DNA of 64,000 nucleotides from Nitrospinales bacterium. Its GTDB lineage: Bacteria > Nitrospinota > Nitrospinia > Nitrospinales > VA-1. The position numbers and the translations under genes are program-made. Shown here in pieces: positions 44,485-57,666 of the stretch (the first letter of the stretch is position 1; every line of letters starts with the position of its first letter). Below the pieces are notes generated by a model that worked only from the letters and a program-made list of their open reading frames with translations, was not told the origin of the DNA and made no database searches. The DNA is taken from positions 1,536,001 to 1,600,000 of the forward strand of contig OZ253496.1 in assembly GCA_965262115.1 (NCBI GenBank). Direction: 5' to 3'.

Positions 44485-44723
44485 CCCGGAAGGCAAGCGT
44501 GCATACGGATTCTATTCAATGGCAGATCGAAGTCGATAAAAAAGACATCGCATACATTGTCAGCATTTTTGACGGATATGATAATCTGGCGGTGGTGCGA
44601 ACGCTGGATGCTTCCCGTGGACTCATTGAGCTGATAATCTCTCCCGACTATCTGGAAGATACCCGTTGCCTGGTGGAGGCACTCTCCAGGGAAATCCCTT
44701 TCCGCCCACTGGCAGGGTGCTAA
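44481..44723 (+). CDS. DUF4911 family protein
   Basis: [21 protein letters not shown] pattern; follows mnmG. Confidence 0.7.
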
Positions 44724-44773
44724 AAAACTCCTGTAGTTCGGCGGTGTTGACCTCCCTCCCTGTCAAGTCTTTT

Positions 44774-46218
44774 GGGCCTGTTGCCCAAACCTTTTGATAG
44801 AAGCGTGGGTTTATAAGGATTATAATTTATCTGGCTAGTTTTTGTTCTTCTACAGTTTTAATCTTTTTTTCCGGGAGTCATTCCCATGATGAAACGCGAA
44901 ACCCCGTCCCAGAGCGTATTCTTTAACTAGGCCGTGAATCTTGAAGATCGGAGTCCTCCAGATCACGAGTTGCGGCAAGTTTCTTCCGTTTTGAACCTGG
45001 ATTTTGTGTATGAACAAGTAAAGGATAAGTACGGCCACAATGGCAACGAATCGGTTCCGCCTCCGGTGATGCTAAAACTGATGTTGCTGCTCATCTTTTA
45101 CAACGTTCGTTCCGAACGTGAGTTGATGCGTACGCTTCCGTAGCGGATGGATTGGCTCTGGTTTCTGGGTTATGGTCTGGACACTGTGATTCCTAATCCC
45201 AGCGTATTATCGAAACCAAGGGTTACGAGAAACTTTGTGAGAGACTGGGCGAACCGGAGGAATCCAATAATCGGCGGGTACGCAGAGAAGTTAATGTTCG
45301 TTACCGTTCTACGACCGCTCCGGATGCGGCGATTGTGCCGCGCGGGGGTTCGCGTTTGCGTTATAAAGTACATCGTTCGGTGGATCCGGCGGCGGAAGTG
45401 ATCACCACGACTGAGGTGACACGTGGCGATGTAGACGATTCGCATCGGTTCAGTGCCATGCTGGAAGCGCACCAGGAAAATACCGGGATGTCAGCGAAGA
45501 CCGCAGTGGCCGACAGTAAATACGGTACGGTGGAAAACTTTCTTGCCTGCAAAGATATGGGCATTCAACCCCATATGCCCGACCTGAAAAAGAGTCAGGA
45601 AACAGACGGCAAACGTCATGGAATATTTTCCAACAGCGCATTTACATTCGACCCTGAAAGCGATACCTATATCTGCCCGGTGGGCAAACGCTTGCGGCTG
45701 AAGACCTGCCGGTTAAAAGAGCAGCGTATGTATTACGCCGCCAGAGCAGACGACGGTAATGCCTGCGAACTAAAATCCCAATGCACACGTAGTGCAACCG
45801 GACGCACGATCCAACGGGTTGATCGTCAGGACGACCTCGAAGAAATGCGCGCAATGGCAAAGACCCCAAAAGGAAAACAAGACCTGAAAACGAGACAGCA
45901 TCTTATGGAACGGTCATTCGCATATTCGGTGCCCTTGGGATTCAAAAGGGCACGGTGGCGAAGATTATGGCTGATCCAGATTCAAGAATACCTGACCGCA
46001 TCCATTCAAAACATCAAACGAATGATCCAACACCTGAAAAAACCGATTCACAGTCATGCACTGAAGGTCGTACAACGATTCAAAAACTGCTTGCAGGCTT
46101 CAACTTGGGGAGGAATGAATCTGGGTTTTGGGATTTCAATTTAGAAAAGAAAATTCGTAAGAAATACACAAAATTAATATCAGCAACCCTTCACGGCAAC
46201 CCTTTGGGCAACAGGCCC
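44774..46218 (+). mobile_element. IS1182-family element with defective transposase
   Basis: Perfect 16-bp TIRs GGGCCTGTTGCCCAAA (44774-44789/46203-46218); TTTT on both flanks; VRSERELM, ADSKYG and YICPVGK motifs; in-frame TAG stops and an internal deletion. Confidence 0.85.
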
Positions 46219-46278
46219 TTTTCTTGACTACAAGAGGGTAAAAGAAGCGTGGCAATCCAACCCTCCCCCAGCCCCTCC

Positions 46279-46647
46279 CTATGAAGGGAGGGGAGGCAGA
46301 TGTTTTAAAATCTTTTCAAAAACTCCATCCAGGTTTTCATAAACATCCTGATTGGTAAATCGCAGAAACCGTATCCCCATATCTTCGATGGTTTTCTGCC
46401 GGATTTCATCCGATTGGATCGCCGTTCCACTGAAATGAGAGTCTCCATCGATTTCAATCGCGAGTTTTGCCGATGGGCAATAAAAATCCAGAATGTATCG
46501 GTCGACACTGTATTGTCGCCCAAACTTATATCCACCGGCCTGTCTGTTTCGCAAAAACTGCCACAAAGCCACTTCCGCTAGCGGCATTTCTTTGCGCAAG
46601 GATTCTCTTTTGGTTTTTTCTGTGTTTCTGTTGAAAATTTTTACCAT
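46279..46647 (-). CDS. DUF559 (Vsr-like PD-(D/E)XK) endonuclease flanked by 39-bp inverted repeats
   Basis: RESLRKEM, YILDFYC, IEIDGDSH and LRFTN motifs. Confidence 0.88.
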   Translation of the reverse strand: MVKIFNRNTEKTKRESLRKEMPLAEVALWQFLRNRQAGGYKFGRQYSVDRYILDFYCPSAKLAIEIDGDSHFSGTAIQSDEIRQKTIEDMGIRFLRFTNQDVYENLDGVFEKILKHLPPLPS

Positions 46648-46809
46648 AGCTTTCTACATTCCAAGCCCCCCTCCCTTCATAGGGAGGGGCTGGGGGAGGG
46701 TTGGATCAAAGTTAGCATCCGAACCTGAAAACAGGTTAACAAATAGTTGAAGATGGTGTAAATAATTTTTGTGTCTGCTTTGAGGCTGGAGGCGGCTCAA
46801 GTACTTTTT

Positions 46810-47092
46810 TTATAGTCCCTCCCTATGAAGGGAGGGATAGATATCGGCAGAGAGGGTTTGAGTCATTTTTTGATGCTCGGCAAACTCCAGGCCGTTGTCA
46901 TAAGTGATGGTGTGAACCCGGTTCCGGTGAGGGGCAAGCCCCTGTTCGATGCGTTGGCGGACCTGTGGGACCTGTTTGGTTTTCGATGCGGTCAGAACCG
47001 TATATTGAGTTTTGCGCTCCACAAGAGTGGCAACAACGCCGACCTTTACCGATGAGGGTATCGCCTTCCCAGTCTCCGACACGAAATGGCAT
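46810..47092 (-). pseudogene. IS30-family transposase fragment
   Basis: GDWEGDT, TLVERKT and TITYDNGLEF motifs across frames. Confidence 0.8.
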
Positions 47093-47189
47093 TTTGTTAT
47101 TTTTATCTATTGTGGATCATTCTGGATAAAAATACGGCGGAATTAAAAGAGGCCGGGTCTTTCGGGGAACGGTTGTCGCTAATTTAGCT

Positions 47190-48284
47190 TCATCGTCCCA
47201 GGCAAATGCCGATTGACTCAGCAGTACGGACCAGTTGCGAGTCATCGGGTACCTGACGGACGATTCCAGCCAGGGATGCCAGCGGAACTAAGACAATATC
47301 CTGAGATTTCAAAGCCACCATAGTGCCAAATTTCCCTTCTGCGGCGGCTTCGACCGCCTGGGTTCCCAACCGGGTACCAAGCACCCGGTCAAAAGCCAAA
47401 GGAGTGCCACCTCTTTGCGTATGACCTAAAACCGTGCAACGCACTTCCAAATCGATTCGATCGCTCAATTGCTTGGCGATATAATTGCCCACTCCTCCCA
47501 ACTGAGCGACTCCCTGCAATCGGGTAGATGCCGCCTCACTGGTGATGGCTTCCTTGCCAATCTCTTTGGCACCTTCGGCCACCACGATCACGCTGAAAGG
47601 ACTGCCCCCTTCTTCCCGCAAGCGGATTTTTTCCCGGACTTTTTCAAGGTTGTAAGGGATTTCCGGAATAAGAATGACATGAGCTCCGCCGGAAATTCCG
47701 GCTTCCAGAGCGGTCCATCCGGCACTCCGGCCCATTACTTCCAGGATCATGATGCGATGGTGACTTTCGCCAGTGGTTTTCAGTCTGTCCAAGGCATCGC
47801 AAGCAACCTGCACGGCGGTCTGGTAACCAAACGTGTAGTCCGTTCCCACCAGATCGTTATCAATCGTCTTGGGAATGCCGATCACCGGCAACCCTTTTTC
47901 AAAAAATTTGTGCCCCAACTGCAGGGTTCCATCCCCGCCCACCACAAACAGGCAGTCCAGTTCAAGGCGCTTGAAATTTTCAATCGTTTTTTGGGAATAG
48001 TCCTGAGTGGTCAGGTTGCCGTCTTTATCGAATTGGCGGTACTCAAAAGGATCTCCTTTATTGGTGGTCCCGAGAATGGTTCCCCCTAACGTCAGGATGT
48101 CCTTGGTTCCGGCTACGGTGAGCTTGCAGTTGCGGTCAAAGATCAAGCCTTCGAAACCCTGCTCGATGCCAATGACTTCAGCTTTATAGGTGATGATCGC
48201 GGATCGGGTGACCGCCCGGATGACCGCATTGAGTCCCGAGCAATCTCCCCCGCCGGTCAGAATGCCAACACGTTTAAGGCCCAT
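47190..48284 (-). CDS. pfkA: 6-phosphofructokinase (group III-like)
   Basis: GGGDCSGLN, GGDGT, PKTIDND and EVMGR motifs. Confidence 0.93.
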   Translation of the reverse strand: MGLKRVGILTGGGDCSGLNAVIRAVTRSAIITYKAEVIGIEQGFEGLIFDRNCKLTVAGTKDILTLGGTILGTTNKGDPFEYRQFDKDGNLTTQDYSQKTIENFKRLELDCLFVVGGDGTLQLGHKFFEKGLPVIGIPKTIDNDLVGTDYTFGYQTAVQVACDALDRLKTTGESHHRIMILEVMGRSAGWTALEAGISGGAHVILIPEIPYNLEKVREKIRLREEGGSPFSVIVVAEGAKEIGKEAITSEAASTRLQGVAQLGGVGNYIAKQLSDRIDLEVRCTVLGHTQRGGTPLAFDRVLGTRLGTQAVEAAAEGKFGTMVALKSQDIVLVPLASLAGIVRQVPDDSQLVRTAESIGICLGR

Positions 48285-49604
48285 GGGAAACAGTTACAGG
48301 TTCCGCAATCAGGTCATAATCCGCCGCGTGCTTTATGGTTACCGGAATTATTTCTCCGGGTTCGGCTTCACATTTTTCGAGGATGACCTGTCCGTCAATA
48401 TCCGGTGCCTGGGAGGCGAGCCTTCCCGTCATCAAATAATTTTCCTGCGGGTCAAAACCTTCCACCAAAACCGGTTCCACCCTGCCCACGCGCTCCCGGT
48501 TTTTTCTGAGAGCAATATCTTTTTGAAATTCCATCAGGATATCGCGGCGCTCTTCTTTGACCTCCTGCGGTACCCGGTCGGGATAATCGAAGGCAGTGGT
48601 GCCTTCCTCATCCGAATAAGTAAAAATCCCAACATGGTCGAATTCCATTTCACAAAGAAACCGGACCGTATGTTTAAAATGCGTCTCGGTCTCCCCCGGA
48701 AATCCGATGATAAACGTGGTTCTCAGCGCCACATCGGGAATTTTTAATCGAACTTCTTCGAGCATTTTCCGCACCCCGCCTGCCGTTTCATGCTTTTAAG
48801 CATCTCGTCATGCGTATGTTGCAGAGGCACATCAATGTAGCGGCAGACTTTGGGCTCTGAGGCGATGAACTCAATCACCTCCGAGTTCAAAAAGGTCGGG
48901 TAACAATATAAAAGCCTGATCCACTCCAACCCATCGACCTTGGCCATTTCTGCCAGCAAGCGAACCAGTCCGTCTTTCATTCCCAAGTCAAAACCGTACA
49001 TGGTGGTGTCTTGCGAAATCAGGTTAAATTCTTTGACTCCCTTGCTGGCCAGGTTCTCGGCCTCGGCCAGAATGGATTCCGGCGAGCGACTGCGCATCGG
49101 CCCACGCATTTTCGGAATGATGCAAAACGCGCAACGGTTGGAGCAACCTTCGGAGATTTTTAAATAAGCAGTATAAAAAGCTGTGCTCAACAACCGGTCG
49201 GTGTACGACTCATAATATTCGGCGGGTGTGGCGACATGGTTTTTGGATAACGGGTCTGTATCCCCAATGATGTTTTTCAATTGAGGGTACTGGCCCACCC
49301 CCAGCAGGTGGTCGATTTCTGGAATTTCATCAAGCAGTTCCTGACTATACCGTTCGGCCAGACAACCGGTGACGACCAACTGTTTGCATTCCCCCTCGGT
49401 CTTGTGCCGGGCCATTTCCAGAATCGTGTCGATCGATTCCTTTTTGGCAGACTCTATAAAGCCGCAAGTGTTGACAATGATTACCTCTGCATCTTCTTCA
49501 TTCTGGGTGAGGCTGAATCCAGAAGAAACCAGATCGCCCAGAACCCTTTCGGTGTCCACCGTGTTTTTCGGACACCCCAAACTCACCATGCCAATTTTTT
49601 TCAT
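48274..49604 (-). pseudogene. rimO: Ribosomal protein S12 methylthiotransferase, frameshifted near 48775
   Basis: SLGCPKN, NTCGFI, CSNRCAFC and C-terminal APDIDG TRAM motifs across two ORFs. Confidence 0.9.
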
Positions 49605-49639
49605 TCTCTGTCTTAACTCCCTGAATCCCCTTGTCAGGC

Positions 49640-49888
49640 AGACCTTTGCGTAAGTCTATAAAGCAGAAAAGCGAGATGCTTCGAGATACCCCTACGGGGC
49701 ATGAAGTTTAATGAAGAGGATATCACATACCCCTCCTACCCCTCCGGGGCATGAAGTTAATGGAAGGGGATATAACAGGCTCAAGAAGGCAAAGGTCGAG
49801 TATCACTAGCTCAGCATGACAATAAAAGGCTATTTTGTCATTCTGAGGAGCTATTGCAACGAAGAATCTTGGGTTATGCAAAGGTCTC
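49640..49888. mobile_element. MITE/CGTC composite carrying three stacked 39-41 bp micro-elements
   Basis: Filled counterpart of 39598-39725. Confidence 0.85.
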
Positions 49889-49937
49889 CTTCTTAGGGGG
49901 AAGTTCTTTTAAGTATTACCCTTCCGGGGCACGAAGG

Positions 49938-50627
49938 CTAATGAAGAGTATCACGTGCGCTTGAGCGTTTGGTCCGCTTTATAGGCAATGCAGTGCTGGC
50001 AGCATGTGATACCCCTTCACTTGTTTCATGCCCCGTAGGGGTACGCCGAGCGGTTAACTTTTTATCCATTTTGCGAATGAGTTCATCAAAACTCTTTTTT
50101 TTAATCACCTTGTAAAACTGACTGCGCAAATTGTTCCGCATGCTGATCCCGTCCAGAATGACATCCACCACCTGCCATTTACCTCCGGCCAGAGTCAGAT
50201 GAAAATCGATGTCGACTTCCCCTTCCTTTTCATGAATCACCGTCAGGGGAACCACAACAACTTTCTTTTTTTCTTTGGTTTTTCCATATTCCAGATCCAG
50301 TTCGGCAAAAAATTTCGCAGAACTGGGAAATGCCACATGGACGAACAGGTCCCCGAGCAGGGTTTTAAACTTTTCTCGCTCGGGATCACTGCGCTTAGCC
50401 CAATGTTTTCCTAAAGCTTTTTTGCTGATTTCTGCGACATTCAGCAAACCAAGAGCAGATTGGGAATGCTTCTGGTTGTCTGCCTCTTCTAAACCCGAAA
50501 CATCCGCTTTAATCTGTTGAATTTCTCCCAACAACTTTTTCACCGAATCCTGGGGGTCTTTGGTTTCTGCCCAGAGCGGACTGGTGGTCAAAACAATAAA
50601 AAGAACAGCACTTAAGGTTTTTTTCAT
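49938..50627 (-). CDS. MlaC/Ttg2D-like periplasmic lipid-binding protein with repeat-derived C-terminal extension
   Basis: Signal peptide; ALGKHW and WQVVDVILDGISMRNNLRSQF motifs. Confidence 0.8.
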   Translation of the reverse strand: MKKTLSAVLFIVLTTSPLWAETKDPQDSVKKLLGEIQQIKADVSGLEEADNQKHSQSALGLLNVAEISKKALGKHWAKRSDPEREKFKTLLGDLFVHVAFPSSAKFFAELDLEYGKTKEKKKVVVVPLTVIHEKEGEVDIDFHLTLAGGKWQVVDVILDGISMRNNLRSQFYKVIKKKSFDELIRKMDKKLTARRTPTGHETSEGVSHAASTALPIKRTKRSSARDTLH

Positions 50628-50736
50628 ATTCGTCTATGATAGGTTCAGCATTGCATATTTAGTGGGGGCTTCTCATAAATTATAACGCAAACCGCAAGTT
50701 CATTTAACAAATTTTAATCCCTTTATAAAACGACAC

Positions 50737-51519
50737 ATGGCTGAAGACTCATCCCAAACAAAGAGACTTTTAAAGGGCCGGGTTTTCCTACTGGCAGTAT
50801 TTCTCGTGATTCTAACCGGGAAAACCTCCTTTGCCGGGCCGGCCGAGATCGATAAACAGTATCAGCAAGCCAAAACCTTGAAAGAGTTTGAACGCATCGC
50901 CGAAGAAATCCGGAAAACCCTCGAAAAAGAACCGGGCAGCCCCCAATGGCAATGGCGACTGGCTCGATCCCATTACGCCATCGCCAAACGAACGGAGGAC
51001 GAAGACATCGCAAACCAGCAATACGACCTGTGCATCGAGCACAGTAGCCGGACTCTGGAAATGCAACCGGACTCGGCCATCGGTTATTTTTTCCGTGCCA
51101 TATGCCGAGGCAAACAGGGGGAGATGAAAGACATGTGGTCCAGCCTGGGAATCATCGATCCTTTTGAAGAAGATATGAAAAAAGCGTTAGAGCTGGATCC
51201 GGCTATCCAGAACGGCGGCCCGAACCGCGCGCTGGGCAAGTTTTATTTGGAGTTGCCCTTTTTTCTAGGTGGCAGCACAGATCAATCGATTTATCACCTT
51301 AAAGAAGCAGTTCGCCTGAGTCCTGATTACGCAGAAAACCACCTTGGGCTGGCCCAGGCTTATTATGCTAAAAATAATTTCACCTCCGCGCGAAAATCGC
51401 TTTCCACCCTACTTAGTCTGACCGATAATGTTGCGGACAATGAGGACCTTTTAAAACTCAGGACAAAAGGCCAGGAGTTGATGAAAAAGCTGACCACTGA
51501 TTATTCCCACACCTTATGA
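50737..51519 (+). CDS. Secreted TPR-like protein
   Basis: Signal peptide; WRLARS and RALGKFYLELPFFLGGS TPR-like pattern. Confidence 0.7.
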   Translation: MAEDSSQTKRLLKGRVFLLAVFLVILTGKTSFAGPAEIDKQYQQAKTLKEFERIAEEIRKTLEKEPGSPQWQWRLARSHYAIAKRTEDEDIANQQYDLCIEHSSRTLEMQPDSAIGYFFRAICRGKQGEMKDMWSSLGIIDPFEEDMKKALELDPAIQNGGPNRALGKFYLELPFFLGGSTDQSIYHLKEAVRLSPDYAENHLGLAQAYYAKNNFTSARKSLSTLLSLTDNVADNEDLLKLRTKGQELMKKLTTDYSHTL

Positions 51520-53216
51520 TTAAAGAAATTAGAATCCGAAATTTTGCCACTATAGAAAATCTTGCGGTGAACTTTGAGAAAGGATTGAACGTGCTGACCG
51601 GTGAAACCGGCGCGGGTAAATCCATCATCATCGACGCGCTGAATCTCCTGCTAGGAGGTAGGGCCGATACCGATTCCATCCGTTCCGGAGAAACCACCGC
51701 TTTTGTGGAAGCAGCCTTCGAAGTCACCGACCCCATGACTCTCGACTTGATTTTGGAATTCGGCATCGAAATAGAGGATGGAGAACTTCTTGTCAAACGC
51801 CAGATTTCCAACGCTGGGAAAAATCGCTGCCTACTCAATGATAGTCCGGTCACGGTTTCCACCCTGGCAAAAATTGGTGACCGCCTGGTCGATCTGCATG
51901 GGCAACACGATCACCAGACCCTGCTTCATCCTGAAGTCCACGTCGATCTTTTAGACCTGTACGGCAAATGCAGGACACTCCGCGATGAGTTCTCCGGGAA
52001 GTTCTCGGACCACCAGACTGGGACGAAAAAATTGCAGTCCATGAAAATGGATGAGCAGGAGCTGGTACAAAAACAGGAGTTCCTGAACTTTCAACTCAAC
52101 GAGATTGATCAGGCCCAGCTCTCGGAGGAAGAAGAGGAAGAAATCAAGGCGGAGCGCAATAAACTGAAACACGCCGGACAAATTCGCGAAGGCCTGCAAA
52201 AAAGCCAGTCGCTGTTGACCGATGAAAGCGGCTCCATACTGGAAAACCTGGGGCAGGTTTTGAAAGAGCTGGAATCGGTTCTCGACATCGATCCCAGCAT
52301 GAAAGAAACGGTTGAACGGTCCCGTTCCGCTTTCTATGAACTGGAAGAGGTGGTGGAGTCTTTACGAAACTATGACCGATCTTTGGAGTTCAATCCGAAC
52401 AGACTGGAAGAAATTGAAGACCGGCTCGCCGAGATAAGCGGACTAAAACGAAAATACGGCAACGACATCGCAGAAATTTTAAAGCGCCGGGAACAGATCG
52501 CCCAGGAGTTGGAGCAGTTGGCCTCCAATGATGAAAACATGAAAGCCCTGGAAGAAGAACTGAAGAAAAAAGAAAAGGCGCTTGCCGAACTCAGCATCCG
52601 CCTGGCTGAAAAAAGAGAAGCCGCCGCCAAAAACCTTACCAACAGTGTTGAGAAGGAGCTGAAAGAACTGAGCATGGGCAGCGTCCAGCTTGGCGTGCGT
52701 TTTGATTATCCGACCGACCCTGAGGGATTCATCCTGTTCCGCAAAGAAAAAATGAAAGCCACACCAACCGGATTGGGCACACTGGAATTTTTGTTTTCGT
52801 CGAATCCGGGTGAAGAACTGCGCCCCCTGGCTAAAATCGCCTCAGGCGGTGAATTATCGCGGGTGATGCTGGCTTTGAAATCTATCTTGAACGACCAGGA
52901 CACCATCCCGGTGATGATCTTCGATGAAGTGGATACCGGCATCGGTGGAAGAGTGGCAGAAAAGGTGGGAACCAAATTACAAAAAGTCGCCAGTACCAAA
53001 CAGGTTTTTTGCATCACTCACCTGCCACAAATTGCCGGGATGGCTTCTTTCCATTACCGGGTAGAAAAAGAAGTAAAAGGGAAACGCACACGCTCCACCA
53101 TCCGCCAACTGGAACATGAAGAACGCGTTGAAGAACTGGCCCGCATGTCGAGCGGAGAAAACATCACCAACGCCTCCCTCAATCACGCCCGCGAAATGCT
53201 TCGGCCCACCCGCTAG
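51516..53216 (+). CDS. recN: DNA repair protein RecN
   Basis: TGETGAGKS, HGQHDHQ, ASGGELSR, FDEVD and ITHLPQIA motifs. Confidence 0.97.
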   Translation: MIKEIRIRNFATIENLAVNFEKGLNVLTGETGAGKSIIIDALNLLLGGRADTDSIRSGETTAFVEAAFEVTDPMTLDLILEFGIEIEDGELLVKRQISNAGKNRCLLNDSPVTVSTLAKIGDRLVDLHGQHDHQTLLHPEVHVDLLDLYGKCRTLRDEFSGKFSDHQTGTKKLQSMKMDEQELVQKQEFLNFQLNEIDQAQLSEEEEEEIKAERNKLKHAGQIREGLQKSQSLLTDESGSILENLGQVLKELESVLDIDPSMKETVERSRSAFYELEEVVESLRNYDRSLEFNPNRLEEIEDRLAEISGLKRKYGNDIAEILKRREQIAQELEQLASNDENMKALEEELKKKEKALAELSIRLAEKREAAAKNLTNSVEKELKELSMGSVQLGVRFDYPTDPEGFILFRKEKMKATPTGLGTLEFLFSSNPGEELRPLAKIASGGELSRVMLALKSILNDQDTIPVMIFDEVDTGIGGRVAEKVGTKLQKVASTKQVFCITHLPQIAGMASFHYRVEKEVKGKRTRSTIRQLEHEERVEELARMSSGENITNASLNHAREMLRPTR

Positions 53217-53763
53217 GCGCGGGGCCGACTGCAATAGCTTTCCCTGGCAAGCAATAGGTTAGCCCGGCCTGATGAGCCGCCGAGGGCAAAAACTTCTCCC
53301 CTGACAGGTGGACGTGATATTTTTCCTAAATTTTCGTACCCCGAAGGGATATTGAGGGGGGTTGATTTTTTAACTCCCTCTTTCTCAAACTCGAACAATA
53401 GGAAGACGTTTTGTTCGACGGGTTGGGGTGATTGACCACAAGAAGGGGGTTTGTCGTCATTGCGAACGAAGTGAAGCAATCCAGTTGCTAGTACCCCAAA
53501 ACCGTATGAAACACAGCACCAATTCCGACACACCAGTAAATGTCGGCACCAATAAGGTTCCAAACTGCGGCTGATTTCTCTAAAGGTCATTGCATCACCG
53601 CCTTAACCACAAAGAAAAAGAACGCGAGCATGGTGAGGACGGTGTTCGCCACCGCCGACCAGATCATGATTGTGTGCGCAATATTCCCATCACTAACTTC
53701 ATGCCCCGTAGGGGGGGTATAATAGTTTTTCCATATCACTTGCCATTCTGAGTTTGTAGGTCT

Positions 53764-53863
53764 GTCATGCTGAGCTAGTGATATTTGATCTTTGAATTCT
53801 TGCCCCGGAGGGGTATGTCGAAGCATCTCGATTCTTCGATTTTTCGACTTATGCAAAGGGCTC
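53764..53863. repeat. Half MITE/CGTC REP with a 39-bp micro-element (53777-53815)
   Basis: Reverse-strand homolog of 42073-42163. Confidence 0.75.
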
Positions 53864-53959
53864 CCTGTCAAGGGAGGGGTGAATGATCTCTTTACAACCT
53901 TGGTAACACTGAACTATTTCACAAGGCTCAAGGCCAGCCAACCCTCCCCCAGCCCCTCC

Positions 53960-54328
53960 CTATGAAGGGAGGGGAGGCAGATGTTTTAAAATCCTTTCGT
54001 AAACTCCATTCAGGTTTTCATAAACATCCTGGTTGGTAAAACGCAGAAACCGTATTCCCATATTTTCGATAACCTTCTGTCGGACCTGGTCCGATTGTGC
54101 AGCCTCTTCGCTAAAATGAGAATCCCCATCGATTTCAATCGCGAGTTTTGCCGATGGGCAATAAAAATCCAGAATGTATCGATCAACACTGTGTTGCCGC
54201 CGAAACTTGTGTCCATTTGCCTGCCTGTTTCGCAAAAACTGCCACAAAGCCACTTCCGCTGGGGGCATTTCTTTGCGCAAGGACTTTCTCCTGGTTTTTT
54301 CTGTATTTTTATTAAAAATTTTTACCAT
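53960..54328 (-). CDS. DUF559 endonuclease, paralog of 46279-46647, flanked by inverted repeats
   Basis: Colinear 122-aa paralog; KFRRQH and IEIDGDSH motifs. Confidence 0.88.
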   Translation of the reverse strand: MVKIFNKNTEKTRRKSLRKEMPPAEVALWQFLRNRQANGHKFRRQHSVDRYILDFYCPSAKLAIEIDGDSHFSEEAAQSDQVRQKVIENMGIRFLRFTNQDVYENLNGVYERILKHLPPLPS

Positions 54329-54508
54329 TGTTTTTTTGTTTTTCATATCCCCTCCCTTCATATGGAGGGGTTTGGGGAGGGCTGGATTAAAGCAATGCAT
54401 TATCCTGAACTTCCCCTGGTTGAGTGGACACATTGAAAGTGTGGATAATACATTTTTGGAGGTGTGTCTATGGTGAGCAAGCGAAGGAGTTTTAGTAAGG
54501 AGGTGGGA

Positions 54509-54697
54509 ATGCAGTACCAGCTCAAAATTGTTTTCGTGGATAATCAGGAGCTGGTTCTCGATACGACCCAAAAGCATGGTTTCAGCGATGACCTGGAACT
54601 GTTCGAGGTGACCACCTCGGAGGAAATTTTTGTGGTTCCCCTCAAACAGAGCAAATATATCTCCCGCGACGCCGGAATCTTTCAAATAGGAGTCTAA
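54509..54697 (+). CDS. Small hypothetical protein (62 aa)
   Basis: AAGGAGGT RBS before MQYQLKIVF. Confidence 0.6.
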   Translation: MQYQLKIVFVDNQELVLDTTQKHGFSDDLELFEVTTSEEIFVVPLKQSKYISRDAGIFQIGV

Positions 54698-54778
54698 CTT
54701 CCCCGCATTAGAGATTGACACGAGCAGATGACTTAGCTAAAATCCGTTGCATGTTTATTAAAACGGGGGGGGGGGATA

Positions 54779-57569
54779 GTGGTTACTTTGAAAAGCCGTG
54801 CTGTATTGAGTGCTGTGCAGTCTGCGTCCAGTTCTGGTTCGTCGGGTGAGGGGCACGCCCTATGCGCTGTGAGAAACCCCGCACTACCGAAGAAAGTCTT
54901 CCGCCATTTCCTGGCTTCATGCCCGTCCCTGGTCCGGTTATGCACAGTCGCCATCCTTGTCCTGCTGTTCATGGCCCCCGTTGCCAGCGCCCAAGTCACC
55001 GCCAATGCCGGGGACGATCAGATCGTCGCAGAGGGCGCGTTCGTCACGCTTGACGGCGGTGACAGTTCCGGCCCCGGCAGTGCGCTGACCTATGAATGGA
55101 GGCAGACCGCCGGTACTGAGACCGCTCTCCCAGTCGTGCTAGACGACATTGCGGCAATCTCACCAACCTTCACTGCGGGTACCGCCGTGGAACTGGAATT
55201 TGAATTGACCGTGAGTGATGGTACCTCCTCGGATACCTACGAGGTGGTGGTCAGTGTAGTTCCGAACACTGTCCTGAGTTTCGGTACGGCCACAATCTCC
55301 GACCGGACTTTTATATTTACACAGAATACACTGGTTGGCGAAATGACCGCCCTGCACGTAGCCAGTGGCGGCAACGTGCCCCTGACCTACAGCATAATAG
55401 AGACGCTGCCAGCGGGGCTAAGCTTTAATCCTGTCACCCGCACAATCAGCGGCACCCCGACCGCCGTTAGCCAGAGAGCTATCTATACATACGAGGTCAG
55501 CGACGCGGATGCTGACACCGTTAACAACAGTGTTTTCATCACCGTTAATCCCGACCCCGCCATCATAGTCAACCAGGCTCCGACCGCCGTGGTCGTGCAG
55601 CTTGCGGATCAGACCCCAAGCCCGTTGATAACGGAGGACATAGTCAACCCCCCCCCATCACTGGCGTTGACGGCGGCGTTCTGATCACGCTTGACGGCAG
55701 CCGCAGTTTTGATCCCGACGGCGATACCCTGGCCTACCTCTGGACCCAGGTTCTTGGTCAGGATATTCTGGCCGAAGGAGCCTTCTCCTCTGAAGAAATA
55801 AGCCCTCAAATCACCATTCCGGCCGACTTCCCTGTCGGAACGGAGCTGGAGTTCAGATTGACTGTGACCGATAGTCCGCAGCCGGGCCAGCCAAGCCTAT
55901 TCACCATCGACACCGTGACCATCACCGTCGTCACGGACGGGACTGCTCCGGTCATTACCCTGAACGGTATGGCGACGGTCTCCATCGATCTGGGTTCTAC
56001 CTATGCGGACGACGGGGCAAGCGCCACAGACAACATTGACGGGGATATTTCCAGCTCGATCACAACGACCATTACCGACAGCAGCGGTGCTGTGATCGCT
56101 GCGGTCGATACCGGTACGGTTGACGTCTACACCATCACCTACACGGTCTCCGATGCGGCGGACAACCCGGCCGTTGCCGTTATTCGCACCATCAGCGTCA
56201 CCGCTGATGTGACGAGGTTTGCCGACCTCAATAACGCGGTCCTGCCGGAAGTGGCGCGTGCCATAGCAGACCAGACGGTGGGTGCGATAACAGAACGTAT
56301 TGGTCAGGCCAGGAATGGTACGACCCGTTCTGTGTCACCATCGCCGGGCAGTCCACATTGACCGGGGCGGCATCTGCCCACGGGCAGGCCATAGCCGATG
56401 GCACGCTGAGTCTGAAGGATGTACTGGGTAACTCCGACTTTGTACTGCCGCTGGATGATATGGGCGGCATGGACAACGGGATGCTCTCCTCCCTGACCTT
56501 ATGGGGCGGGGGCGGCTACCGCAGCTTCGAAAGTTCCGGCGGGAGCGTGAACTTCGACGGCGACCTGTTCAGCGCCCATCTGGGACTGGACGCCCGACCG
56601 CGCGACGATCTGCTGATCGGTCTGGCGGCGTCCTGGAGCCAGAGCGATCTTGACTACAGAGGAGGCCTCGACCTGAACGGCGAGCACAAGCTGGACCTCA
56701 CCAGCGTCCACCCCTATGTGAGCTGGGAAGTATTGGCCGGACAACTGGACCTGTGGGCCACTGCGGGCTACGGCTGGGGTGACCTTGAGATCGCCAATGA
56801 CGGGCTAGACCGTGTATCGAGTGATGTCGAGACGCGGACTGTGAGTGTGGGCGGTGATTATCAGTTGCCGCAGATAGGATCAACCACGTTCCGGCTCAAG
56901 GGTTCAGCCTTGCTGACCGAGCTGGAAGTGGATGGCAGCGATGATATAGAAGCGCTGGATGTGGAGGCCAGCCTGTTTCGGATGGTCCTGGAAGGGGCCC
57001 ATAAGCACATGTTGTCTGACGGGGCTTATGTGGAGCCGAGCCTGGAGGCTGGAGTGCGGTATGACGGCGGCGACGGCGAAACCGGTTTCGGGGCCGAGCT
57101 GGGTGCCGGTTTCCGTTACACCGATCCGACCGTCGGCCTGACTCTGGAAGGCAGGGCGCGGACTCTGGTGGGACGGGACAATTATGAGGAATGGGGCGTT
57201 TCCGGCCTGATTCTTCTGGAGCAGGGCCGAAACGGGCGGGGACTGTCGTTCAGTCTGAGTCCCGGCTACGGCAGTACAGACAGCGGCACGCAAAAAGTAT
57301 GGCAGGAGGGTCTGCGTGACGAGATCAGCCGGGATTACGGCGTGCGGTTGGACACCAGTCTTGGTTACGGGCTGACCGCTCCCGGCGGACGGGGACTGCT
57401 GACTCCCTACAGCGAGATGACCTTCGGCGGCTCTTCCAGGAGCTACCGCCTGGGGATGAGATGGGAACTTGATGCGTTGTTTGACCTGAACCTGACCGGT
57501 GAACGCAGTGAAAGCAACAGCAACACCACCGATCACGCCATCATGCTGAAGGGCGATATCCGGTTTTAA
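54779..57569 (+). pseudogene. Autotransporter-like surface protein (PKD/Ig/DUF5011-type repeats + C-terminal beta-barrel) with two frameshifts
   Basis: ANAGDDQ..VTLDG, LPAGLSF..ISGTP and APVITLNG..ATDNIDGD motifs; terminal Phe barrel; frameshifts at C9 55648-55656 and near 56332. Confidence 0.8.
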
Positions 57570-57666
57570 CCCGGTTGTGGTCATTGAGTGAAGCGCGGCT
57601 CAAGCCGCACTTCCGGCAACCCTGCCAGTCCTGCCGTCTGCAACGGTCTTGTGTGGGCGTGGCCCG

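Follow-up and report, generated by a model that had tools for sequence, protein, structure and literature searches.

A small DUF559 gene between inverted triplex-type hairpins: a multicopy candidate selfish cassette in a Nitrospinaceae genome

A gene for a predicted nuclease of the DUF559 family, bracketed by inverted repeats that each contain a hairpin, is present as five ~450-bp cassettes at unrelated intergenic sites in one Nitrospinaceae genome (G000). We read this unit as a selfish nuclease-plus-hairpin cassette copied by host repair, a reading to which we give a probability of about 0.55. One copy occupies positions 46255-46706 of a 64,000-nucleotide stretch of that genome, here called the window; unlabelled coordinates refer to the window, those prefixed G000 to the genome, and other G numbers to other genomes.

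Results

A DUF559 gene bracketed by perfect inverted arms

The 46255-46706 cassette and its surroundings contain the following features.

46255..46293, plus strand: 3' arm, a type-A repeat (sequence, inverted-repeat comparison, folding)
46261-46268, plus strand: C-rich tail CCCTCCCC of the 3' arm, followed by a linker
46272-46279, plus strand: stem CCCCTCCC of the 3' arm, with the loop TATGAA next
46286-46293, plus strand: stem GGGAGGGG of the 3' arm
46279..46647, minus strand: DUF559 (PF04480) gene, 122 aa, predicted Vsr/EDxHD-like fold (ORF, Pfam, structure model)
46668..46706, minus strand: 5' arm, an exact inversion of the 3' arm, ending 20 nt ahead of the ATG
46814..46836, plus strand: third type-A repeat, truncated, a hairpin without tail (repeat comparison)

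A sequence-only reading had proposed perfect 39-bp inverted arms around the gene, each with an internal hairpin, and both proposals were borne out: the arms (46255-46293 and 46668-46706, 39 nt each, spaced 374 nt) are 100% complementary, and each contains CCCCTCCC-TATGAA-GGGAGGGG, which, across its 6-nt spacer, is predicted by hairpin folding to form a 9-bp stem with a 4-nt loop. That reading also placed the end of the protein, LPPLPS and stop, inside an arm, which is right for the final four codons, P-L-P-S, and the TAG stop (46279-46293) but not for the first L-P, which lies just outside. On its G-rich strand each arm runs from a C-stem through a 6-nt loop, a G-stem and a 3-nt linker to a mirror G-stem, so that the C-rich tail mirrors the stem in the manner of a triplex architecture. 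In sequence comparison, CCCCTCCC-TTCATA-GGGAGGGG-CTG-GGGGAGGG (46668-46700) follows the scheme of the intrastrand triplex motif, TM class II, the triplex itself being predicted. The arm does not fit the TMECO/BoxC consensus, CCCTCNCCC N3-6 GGGNGAGGG N3 GGGNGAGGG, to which the clade-C repeat of the same genome is closer. A promoter and terminator scan gave nothing above shuffles and called neither arm terminator-like.

The 122-aa protein matches PF04480 with an E value of 1e-29 (102.8 bits against a gathering score of 20.6), and E25, D54, E65, D67, H71 and D80 are all present in it. Across an alignment of 86 sequences, E25, E65, D67 and D80 are invariant and D54 and H71 nearly so (D54, H71 and D80 are kept in at least 90%). 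Its structure model (pLDDT 89.8) matched 3hrl and 3r3p in structural comparison with E values of about 1e-4 to 1e-5; the best fold matches were NGO0050 and the catalytic domain of I-Bth0305I (TM 0.60-0.63 by query), Vsr scored lower, and a fold search with a paralog returned the same matches. The spacing of D54/H71/D80 is that of I-Bth0305I D196/H213/D222. With a fold match and the catalytic residues in place, the earlier description of a Vsr-like PD-(D/E)XK enzyme stands as a prediction of activity, and on the model we predict a Vsr-type nuclease. Nucleases of the PD-(D/E)XK class cut by hydrolysis, and the predicted enzyme would therefore be unable to join strands itself. The literature searched held no established function for DUF559, and none of the RNA sequencing runs contained the stretch beyond a share of 0.05.

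Between diverged copies dN/dS is 0.04-0.22, and on few changes it is 0.34-0.96 among the closest copies and 0.7-1.0 in the youngest; judged from these codon comparisons, the gene is under purifying selection. Position 43, which is R in at least 90% of the alignment, is G in the 46279-46647 copy, which may on that account be weakened, and W in its sister copy at G000:660888. The KFRRQ motif has been hit repeatedly in young copies, at codon 43 in these two (46519-46521 in the window) and at codon 44, which reads Q, in G019:C10.

Five cassettes in one genome

A tblastn search of the genome found five close genes (84-100% aa identity), two distant full-length genes and one fragment. All seven full-length small DUF559 genes are bracketed by inverted motifs, and they fall into three clades, each with its own repeat type. 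Three further features of the window bear on the relation between copies.

53938..54387, minus strand: second cassette of the window, with its gene at 53960-54328 (85% aa identity)
46221..46254, no strand: 34-bp flank beyond the 3' arm, common to G000:660888 and copies in G013 and G019
46723..46788, minus strand: captured flank of ~66 bp, duplicating the 3' end of a glycosyltransferase-2 gene

Window positions 53936-54392 and G000:377343-377799 agree over 457 bp with 0 mismatches, and the match ends 2 and 5 bp outside the arms; the self-propagation that had been proposed from the sequence is upheld to the extent of this recent arm-to-arm duplication at two sites. Outside the arms, the 46255-46706 copy has 34 and 14 bp in common with G000:660888, and the source of the flank at 46723-46788 is the glycosyltransferase-2 gene beside the cassette at G000:377345, 1.2 Mb away. 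About 0 to 75 bp of flank accompanies the arms, giving the cassettes ragged ends, and no target duplication adjoins the arms at any of the five. The identical copies, shared flanks and lack of duplications indicate that copying happens, that the arms are its usual limit and that the ends are ragged; a precise cut-and-paste transposon is ruled out by the ragged ends and the missing target duplication.

In sequencing run X1, a variant contig with 11 differences has a depth of 347, against 190 for the contig of the 46255-46706 copy. These depths fit two real copies, with the run possibly being the source sample and depth not standing for copy number. Two sequencing joints that involve the arms span 22-32 letters inside the repeat only and are not evidence of excised or inverted forms. 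In the second cassette of the window no stop interrupts the frame through the 5' arm, so that a 253-aa ORF (53960-54721, minus strand) continues across the arm into DUF559.

Cassette sites in relatives

Empty sites in relatives, which the sequence-only reading had suggested looking for, were found in that three cassette sites lack the cassette in the close relatives compared. The G000:660888 site is without it in all three relatives that could be anchored (G013, G019 and G007; five were tried, G006 and G022 being not anchorable), and the return to host sequence there falls at a shared CATCC, 14 bp beyond the arm. At the G000:735355 site, G013, G019, G006 and G022 have no cassette and G015 is filled, and G007 carries a deletion scar that joins one arm's tail to the other arm's hairpin, as expected if the stretch between the two CCTCCCC direct repeats had been lost. 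Within 1.5 kb after recN, none of five relatives has such a gene. Conversely, one cassette of G013 lies at a site that is without one in G000, and one of its junctions falls within a different hairpin.

Other sites are old, being common to several species: the 377-kb site to G010 and G019, and the 46255-46706 site to G019. The body of the cassette in G019 at the 377-kb site is 90% identical to the 46255-46706 copy, against 81% to the resident of G000, which indicates that conversion or replacement also occurs. The 46255-46706 copy has no clean empty site, the pfk neighbourhood differing in 10 of 11 anchored relatives; G019 carries a cassette in that neighbourhood, in a region rearranged around IS1182. 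No site yielded a clean pre-insertion allele, all of them lying in variable, repeat-rich intergenic regions.

Two neighbours of the 46255-46706 cassette belong to other elements.

44774..46218, plus strand: broken IS1182-family element, outside the cassette, with 16-bp terminal repeats and TTTT on both sides
46810..47082, minus strand: IS30-family transposase fragment

An identical broken IS1182 copy is present at G000:1514996-1516470, with 18 bp beyond one end also shared; at the corresponding position after its cassette, G013 has GTCAAGAAAAGACTT and no IS. Over the wider region (44711-57666), the small gene ending at 44723 is closely followed by the apt-like gene (57667) in G004, G006, G015, G019 and G022; the 13-kb pfk-recN block between 44723 and 57667 is relocated in G000, with IS1182 at one edge. 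A split gene for a large surface protein occupies 54779-57569, and G006, G007 and G013 have several copies of its C-terminal 1.35 kb.

Pairing of protein clade and repeat across bacteria

We collected 80 GTDB loci, of which 73 with full flanks were scored and 7 dropped. The tail-plus-hairpin motif is present on at least one side of 57/73 and on both sides of 29/73, compared with 3/137 and 0/137 control windows of the same loci, and an inverted match scoring at least 15 joins the flanks at 34/73 loci and in 0/137 controls. In a quick tree of 147 proteins, made after duplicates and fragments were dropped, the 46279-46647 protein belongs to a clade A of 16 genes from two genera (SH-aLRT 97), and the type-A hairpin lies beside 16/16 clade-A genes and 0/127 other small DUF559 genes. 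Co-evolution of flanking repeats with the homologs, which the sequence-only reading had suggested testing, is supported by the motif at 57 of 73 loci and by clade-specific repeat types. Since kin share labels, the match of clade and repeat shows tight linkage rather than a functional tie. No hairpin accompanies the four long fusion proteins that contain a distant DUF559 domain.

The arms of clade A are reversed, with tails outward, in 11 of its 16 genes and standard in 0, whereas among the other 127 genes the polarity is standard in 47 and reversed in 2; the rest of each group could not be assigned. Cassettes whose translated arms are in frame were found inside an HsdS and a DNA methylase. On viral contigs, the hairpin accompanies 29/49 near-full DUF559 matches and 0/31 partial ones. 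Four cassettes on short contigs of the viral collection (L239, L242, L244 and L250) lie between terminase-like and portal-like ORFs, and by labels read from the translations these contigs look like gene-transfer-agent clusters. At one site beside G000:1070040 the cassette belongs to either of two DUF559 clades, depending on the species (L004, L010 and L036, from G010, G020 and G008), which suggests a hotspot.

Dispersed repeats and an IS5-type MITE

The type-A arm has 46 copies genome-wide within four mismatches, and a looser scan found 69 tail-plus-hairpin motifs against 0 in two shuffles; read backwards, the motif pattern had 0 matches in all 41 genomes searched. A search that constrained neither loop nor linker gave TATGAA as the loop of 34/37 copies and 11 forms of the linker, a contrast suggesting that the loop is read, with shared descent accounting for part of its conservation. 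The flanks of the 46 copies hold no conserved GTAG (or CGTC) tag.

Across the genus, the median repeat load is 20 in genomes with any small DUF559 gene and 1.5 in those without (11 and 12 genomes, kin being not independent). Within genomes, repeat type was not seen to follow the cognate gene (p=0.27, 11 genomes; cassette arms subtracted, G018 and G020, whose clade-C genes are broken, scored as having the gene, and G001 and G003, with fragments, and G006, with a fusion, as lacking it), so repeat number as a read-out of the cognate nuclease is not supported. G022 (94% complete) and G008 (76%), both fragmented assemblies, carry 21 and 19 type-A repeats, and in neither was a clade-A gene found. 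The distribution of the gene is patchy, with a PF04480 match in 13/22 genus genomes, and in genus g20 type-A repeats occur in 4/4 genomes with a clade-A gene and not in the one without.

At 23 places in G000 (for example 410900-411059) a type-A repeat forms a gene-less doublet, tails inward, with a hairpin of a second type whose linker is GCGGCTACGCC; this second type also follows the clade-A cassette in G100 (L129). The type-A pairs at G000:376415/377345 and 1229166/1230467 enclose ~0.9-1.3 kb of other DNA and are possible cargo units. The 3' end of the glycosyltransferase-2 gene occurs three times at G000:376200-378300 (also in L077 (G019) and L080 (G010)), the two extra copies each near a type-A repeat, and these copies enclose different cargo genes in different species.

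Many of the dispersed repeats are associated with a MITE family, whose ends, GAGACCTTTGCATAA, recall IS5/IS1106.

G000:100135-100260: MITE, example
G000:2054848-2055028: MITE, example
Window ~53863: one MITE end

The family comprises 210 ends and 78 pairs in G000, mostly 125-210 bp, with target duplications of 8-9 bp in 57 of the 78. Half of the type-A copies (23/46) are one half of a doublet, and 16 of those 23 have a MITE end at a fixed distance; at the same distances, 0/23 non-doublet copies, ten cassette arms included, have one. The MITE favours C-rich hairpins, DUF559-type repeats among them (60/210 ends, against 0.4% of random sites), and in G013 it is inserted in a cassette arm. About a third to half of the type-A repeats were probably spread inside this unrelated element.

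Discussion

In layout the cassette resembles a REPtron, as that system is described (PMC8266576, PMC3733652, 10.1101/2021.07.10.451892): an enzyme gene lies between inverted palindromic repeats that are dispersed singly and as doublets, there are several clade-specific pairs per genome, and ISs and MITEs insert into the hairpins. It differs from the REPtron of those accounts in having a predicted PD-(D/E)XK Vsr-like enzyme with no HUH or catalytic tyrosine, no GTAG tag, a triplex-type tail, a multi-copy gene at new sites and a stop codon inside an arm. According to PMC8266576, tnpA-REP is single-copy with no sign of mobility, and the RAYT-like behaviour that had been proposed fails on this point, the DUF559 gene being multi-copy and mobile. 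No HUH/Y1 transposase (PF01797) was found in the genome (94% complete), and a RAYT as mover of the repeats was rejected on that ground. The REPtron analogy thus holds for the bracketed gene and the dispersed repeats but is weakened as regards the nuclease as driver, since 16 of 23 doublet copies are MITE-ended and the cognate-gene test gave p=0.27.

BoxC/PIT/TM repeats have been known since the 1990s. Like the TM/TMECO motifs of Holder et al. 2015 (PMC4666352), the cassette arms consist of a C-rich stem, a 3-6-nt loop, a G-rich stem, a 3-nt loop and a mirror G-rich stem, and they are dispersed, intergenic and often in inverted pairs; unlike TMECO, their 8-bp stems CCCCTCCC/GGGAGGGG do not fit the consensus. 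That survey tied the repeats to genome instability, reported no mobility genes beside TMECO and found no enzyme, and the word nuclease is absent from its main text. In E. coli K-12, TMECO 9 lies ~170 bp downstream of ycjD (DUF559), whose stop is inside a degenerate hairpin, and no motif was found between the start of ycjD and sapF.

The predicted protein shares its fold and D54/H71/D80 spacing with Vsr and with the EDxHD homing endonuclease I-Bth0305I, but unlike the latter, as portrayed in PMC3239194, it has no N-terminal DNA-binding domain, intron or intein, or conserved target allele. As a compact single-gene unit with several copies per genome, the cassette is like an IS or a MITE with terminal inverted repeats, yet it has no transposase domain, target duplication or fixed ends. 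Vsr usually has a partner methylase beside it, and the DUF559 gene has none. The cassette fails as an IS, as a homing element and as a REPtron, REPtron-like though its layout is. Full-text searches, covering literature outside subscription journals, turned up no paper linking DUF559 or YcjD to flanking repeats in its title or abstract. We regard the cassette as real, apparently undescribed, of an enzyme-plus-palindrome kind and possibly a class of its own.

If the cassette is selfish, the nuclease would recognise its own hairpin type, extruded or single-stranded, and would cut at or near the hairpin, whereupon host repair would fill the break with a copy of the cassette or of a lone repeat, perhaps by template switching at short homologies. 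The arms also destabilise the cassette: the tail at one end and the stem at the other form direct repeats, and a deletion between them leaves a lone hairpin. Such a cut-and-repair model explains why the copies are limited by the arms yet ragged, why they carry captured flank and microhomology junctions and why duplications are lacking, and it also accounts for conversion between copies and tolerance of either arm polarity. Against the selfish reading, the identity of two cassettes can also come from gene conversion, and the type-A repeats of G022 and G008 without a clade-A gene, the MITE-borne doublets, the p value of 0.27 and the dN/dS of the youngest copies likewise count against it; the reversed polarity of clade A is not predicted by a model of fixed transposon ends.

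Three other explanations were weighed. The pair could be domesticated in a REPtron-like way, the nuclease maintaining or spreading the repeats in trans for the benefit of the host and extra gene copies being by-products of recombination. Purifying selection, sites common across species (the 377-kb site in G010 and G019, the 735-kb site in G015 and the window site in G019), gene-less doublets, the higher repeat load with any small DUF559 gene (median 20 against 1.5) and the tracking of type-A repeats with the clade-A gene in genus g20 (4/4 with, none in the one without) are all in its favour. We nevertheless consider it unlikely, because five gene copies with new sites among close relatives contrast with the single-copy tnpA-REP of PMC8266576, the gene is patchy (13 of 22 genus genomes), and cassettes have inserted in frame into restriction-modification genes. 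Passive hitch-hiking, in which fragile repeats are spread by other elements and DUF559 is a trapped repair-type nuclease that does not act on them, would explain the ragged ends with captured flank, the null cognate-gene test and the many copies that an IS5-type MITE with 8-9-bp duplications (57/78 pairs) carries or abuts; it also agrees with the link between TM motifs and genomic instability in E. coli, for which PMC4666352 names no enzyme. We think it less probable again: the pairing persists in many phyla while the repeat sequence changes by clade, no MITE end lies at the fixed distances from any of the 23 non-doublet copies, which include the ten cassette arms, the four long DUF559 fusion proteins have no hairpin, and the loop is conserved while the linker drifts.

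The hairpins might instead act in RNA, through ribosome access, termination or mRNA stability, to quiet a toxic nuclease whose target is other DNA, as in homing or restriction. The ATG does have one arm 20 nt ahead of it and the stop codon overlaps the other, the closest characterised fold is a homing endonuclease domain, and an HsdS and a DNA methylase each contain an in-frame cassette. That neither arm was called terminator-like, that the same repeat is dispersed far from the gene, that the insertion sites are, unlike those of homing, unrelated to each other, and that the protein has no separate DNA-binding domain of the kind described for I-Bth0305I in PMC3239194 makes this the most improbable of the three.

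Extending the selfish-cassette reading beyond this genome, we tentatively suggest, with somewhat less than even odds, that DUF559 and triplex-type arms make up a separate, cross-phylum class of transposase-free mobile element, in which a structure-reading nuclease of 120 residues copies a 450-bp cassette, seeds orphan BoxC/PIT/TM repeats and can carry neighbouring DNA. To this, G000 adds an arm-to-arm identical pair, flank capture, a deletion scar, reversed polarity and the MITE confound, and with three protein clades and three repeat types, one with reversed arms, it is a ready panel for specificity. DUF559 is a common family, and its pairing with repeats makes the questions about both testable with one small protein and one oligonucleotide. 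If the copying model is true, the cassette would be a very small self-spreading element that needs no transposase, and the pairing would supply an enzyme for a class of bacterial repeats that has long been without one.
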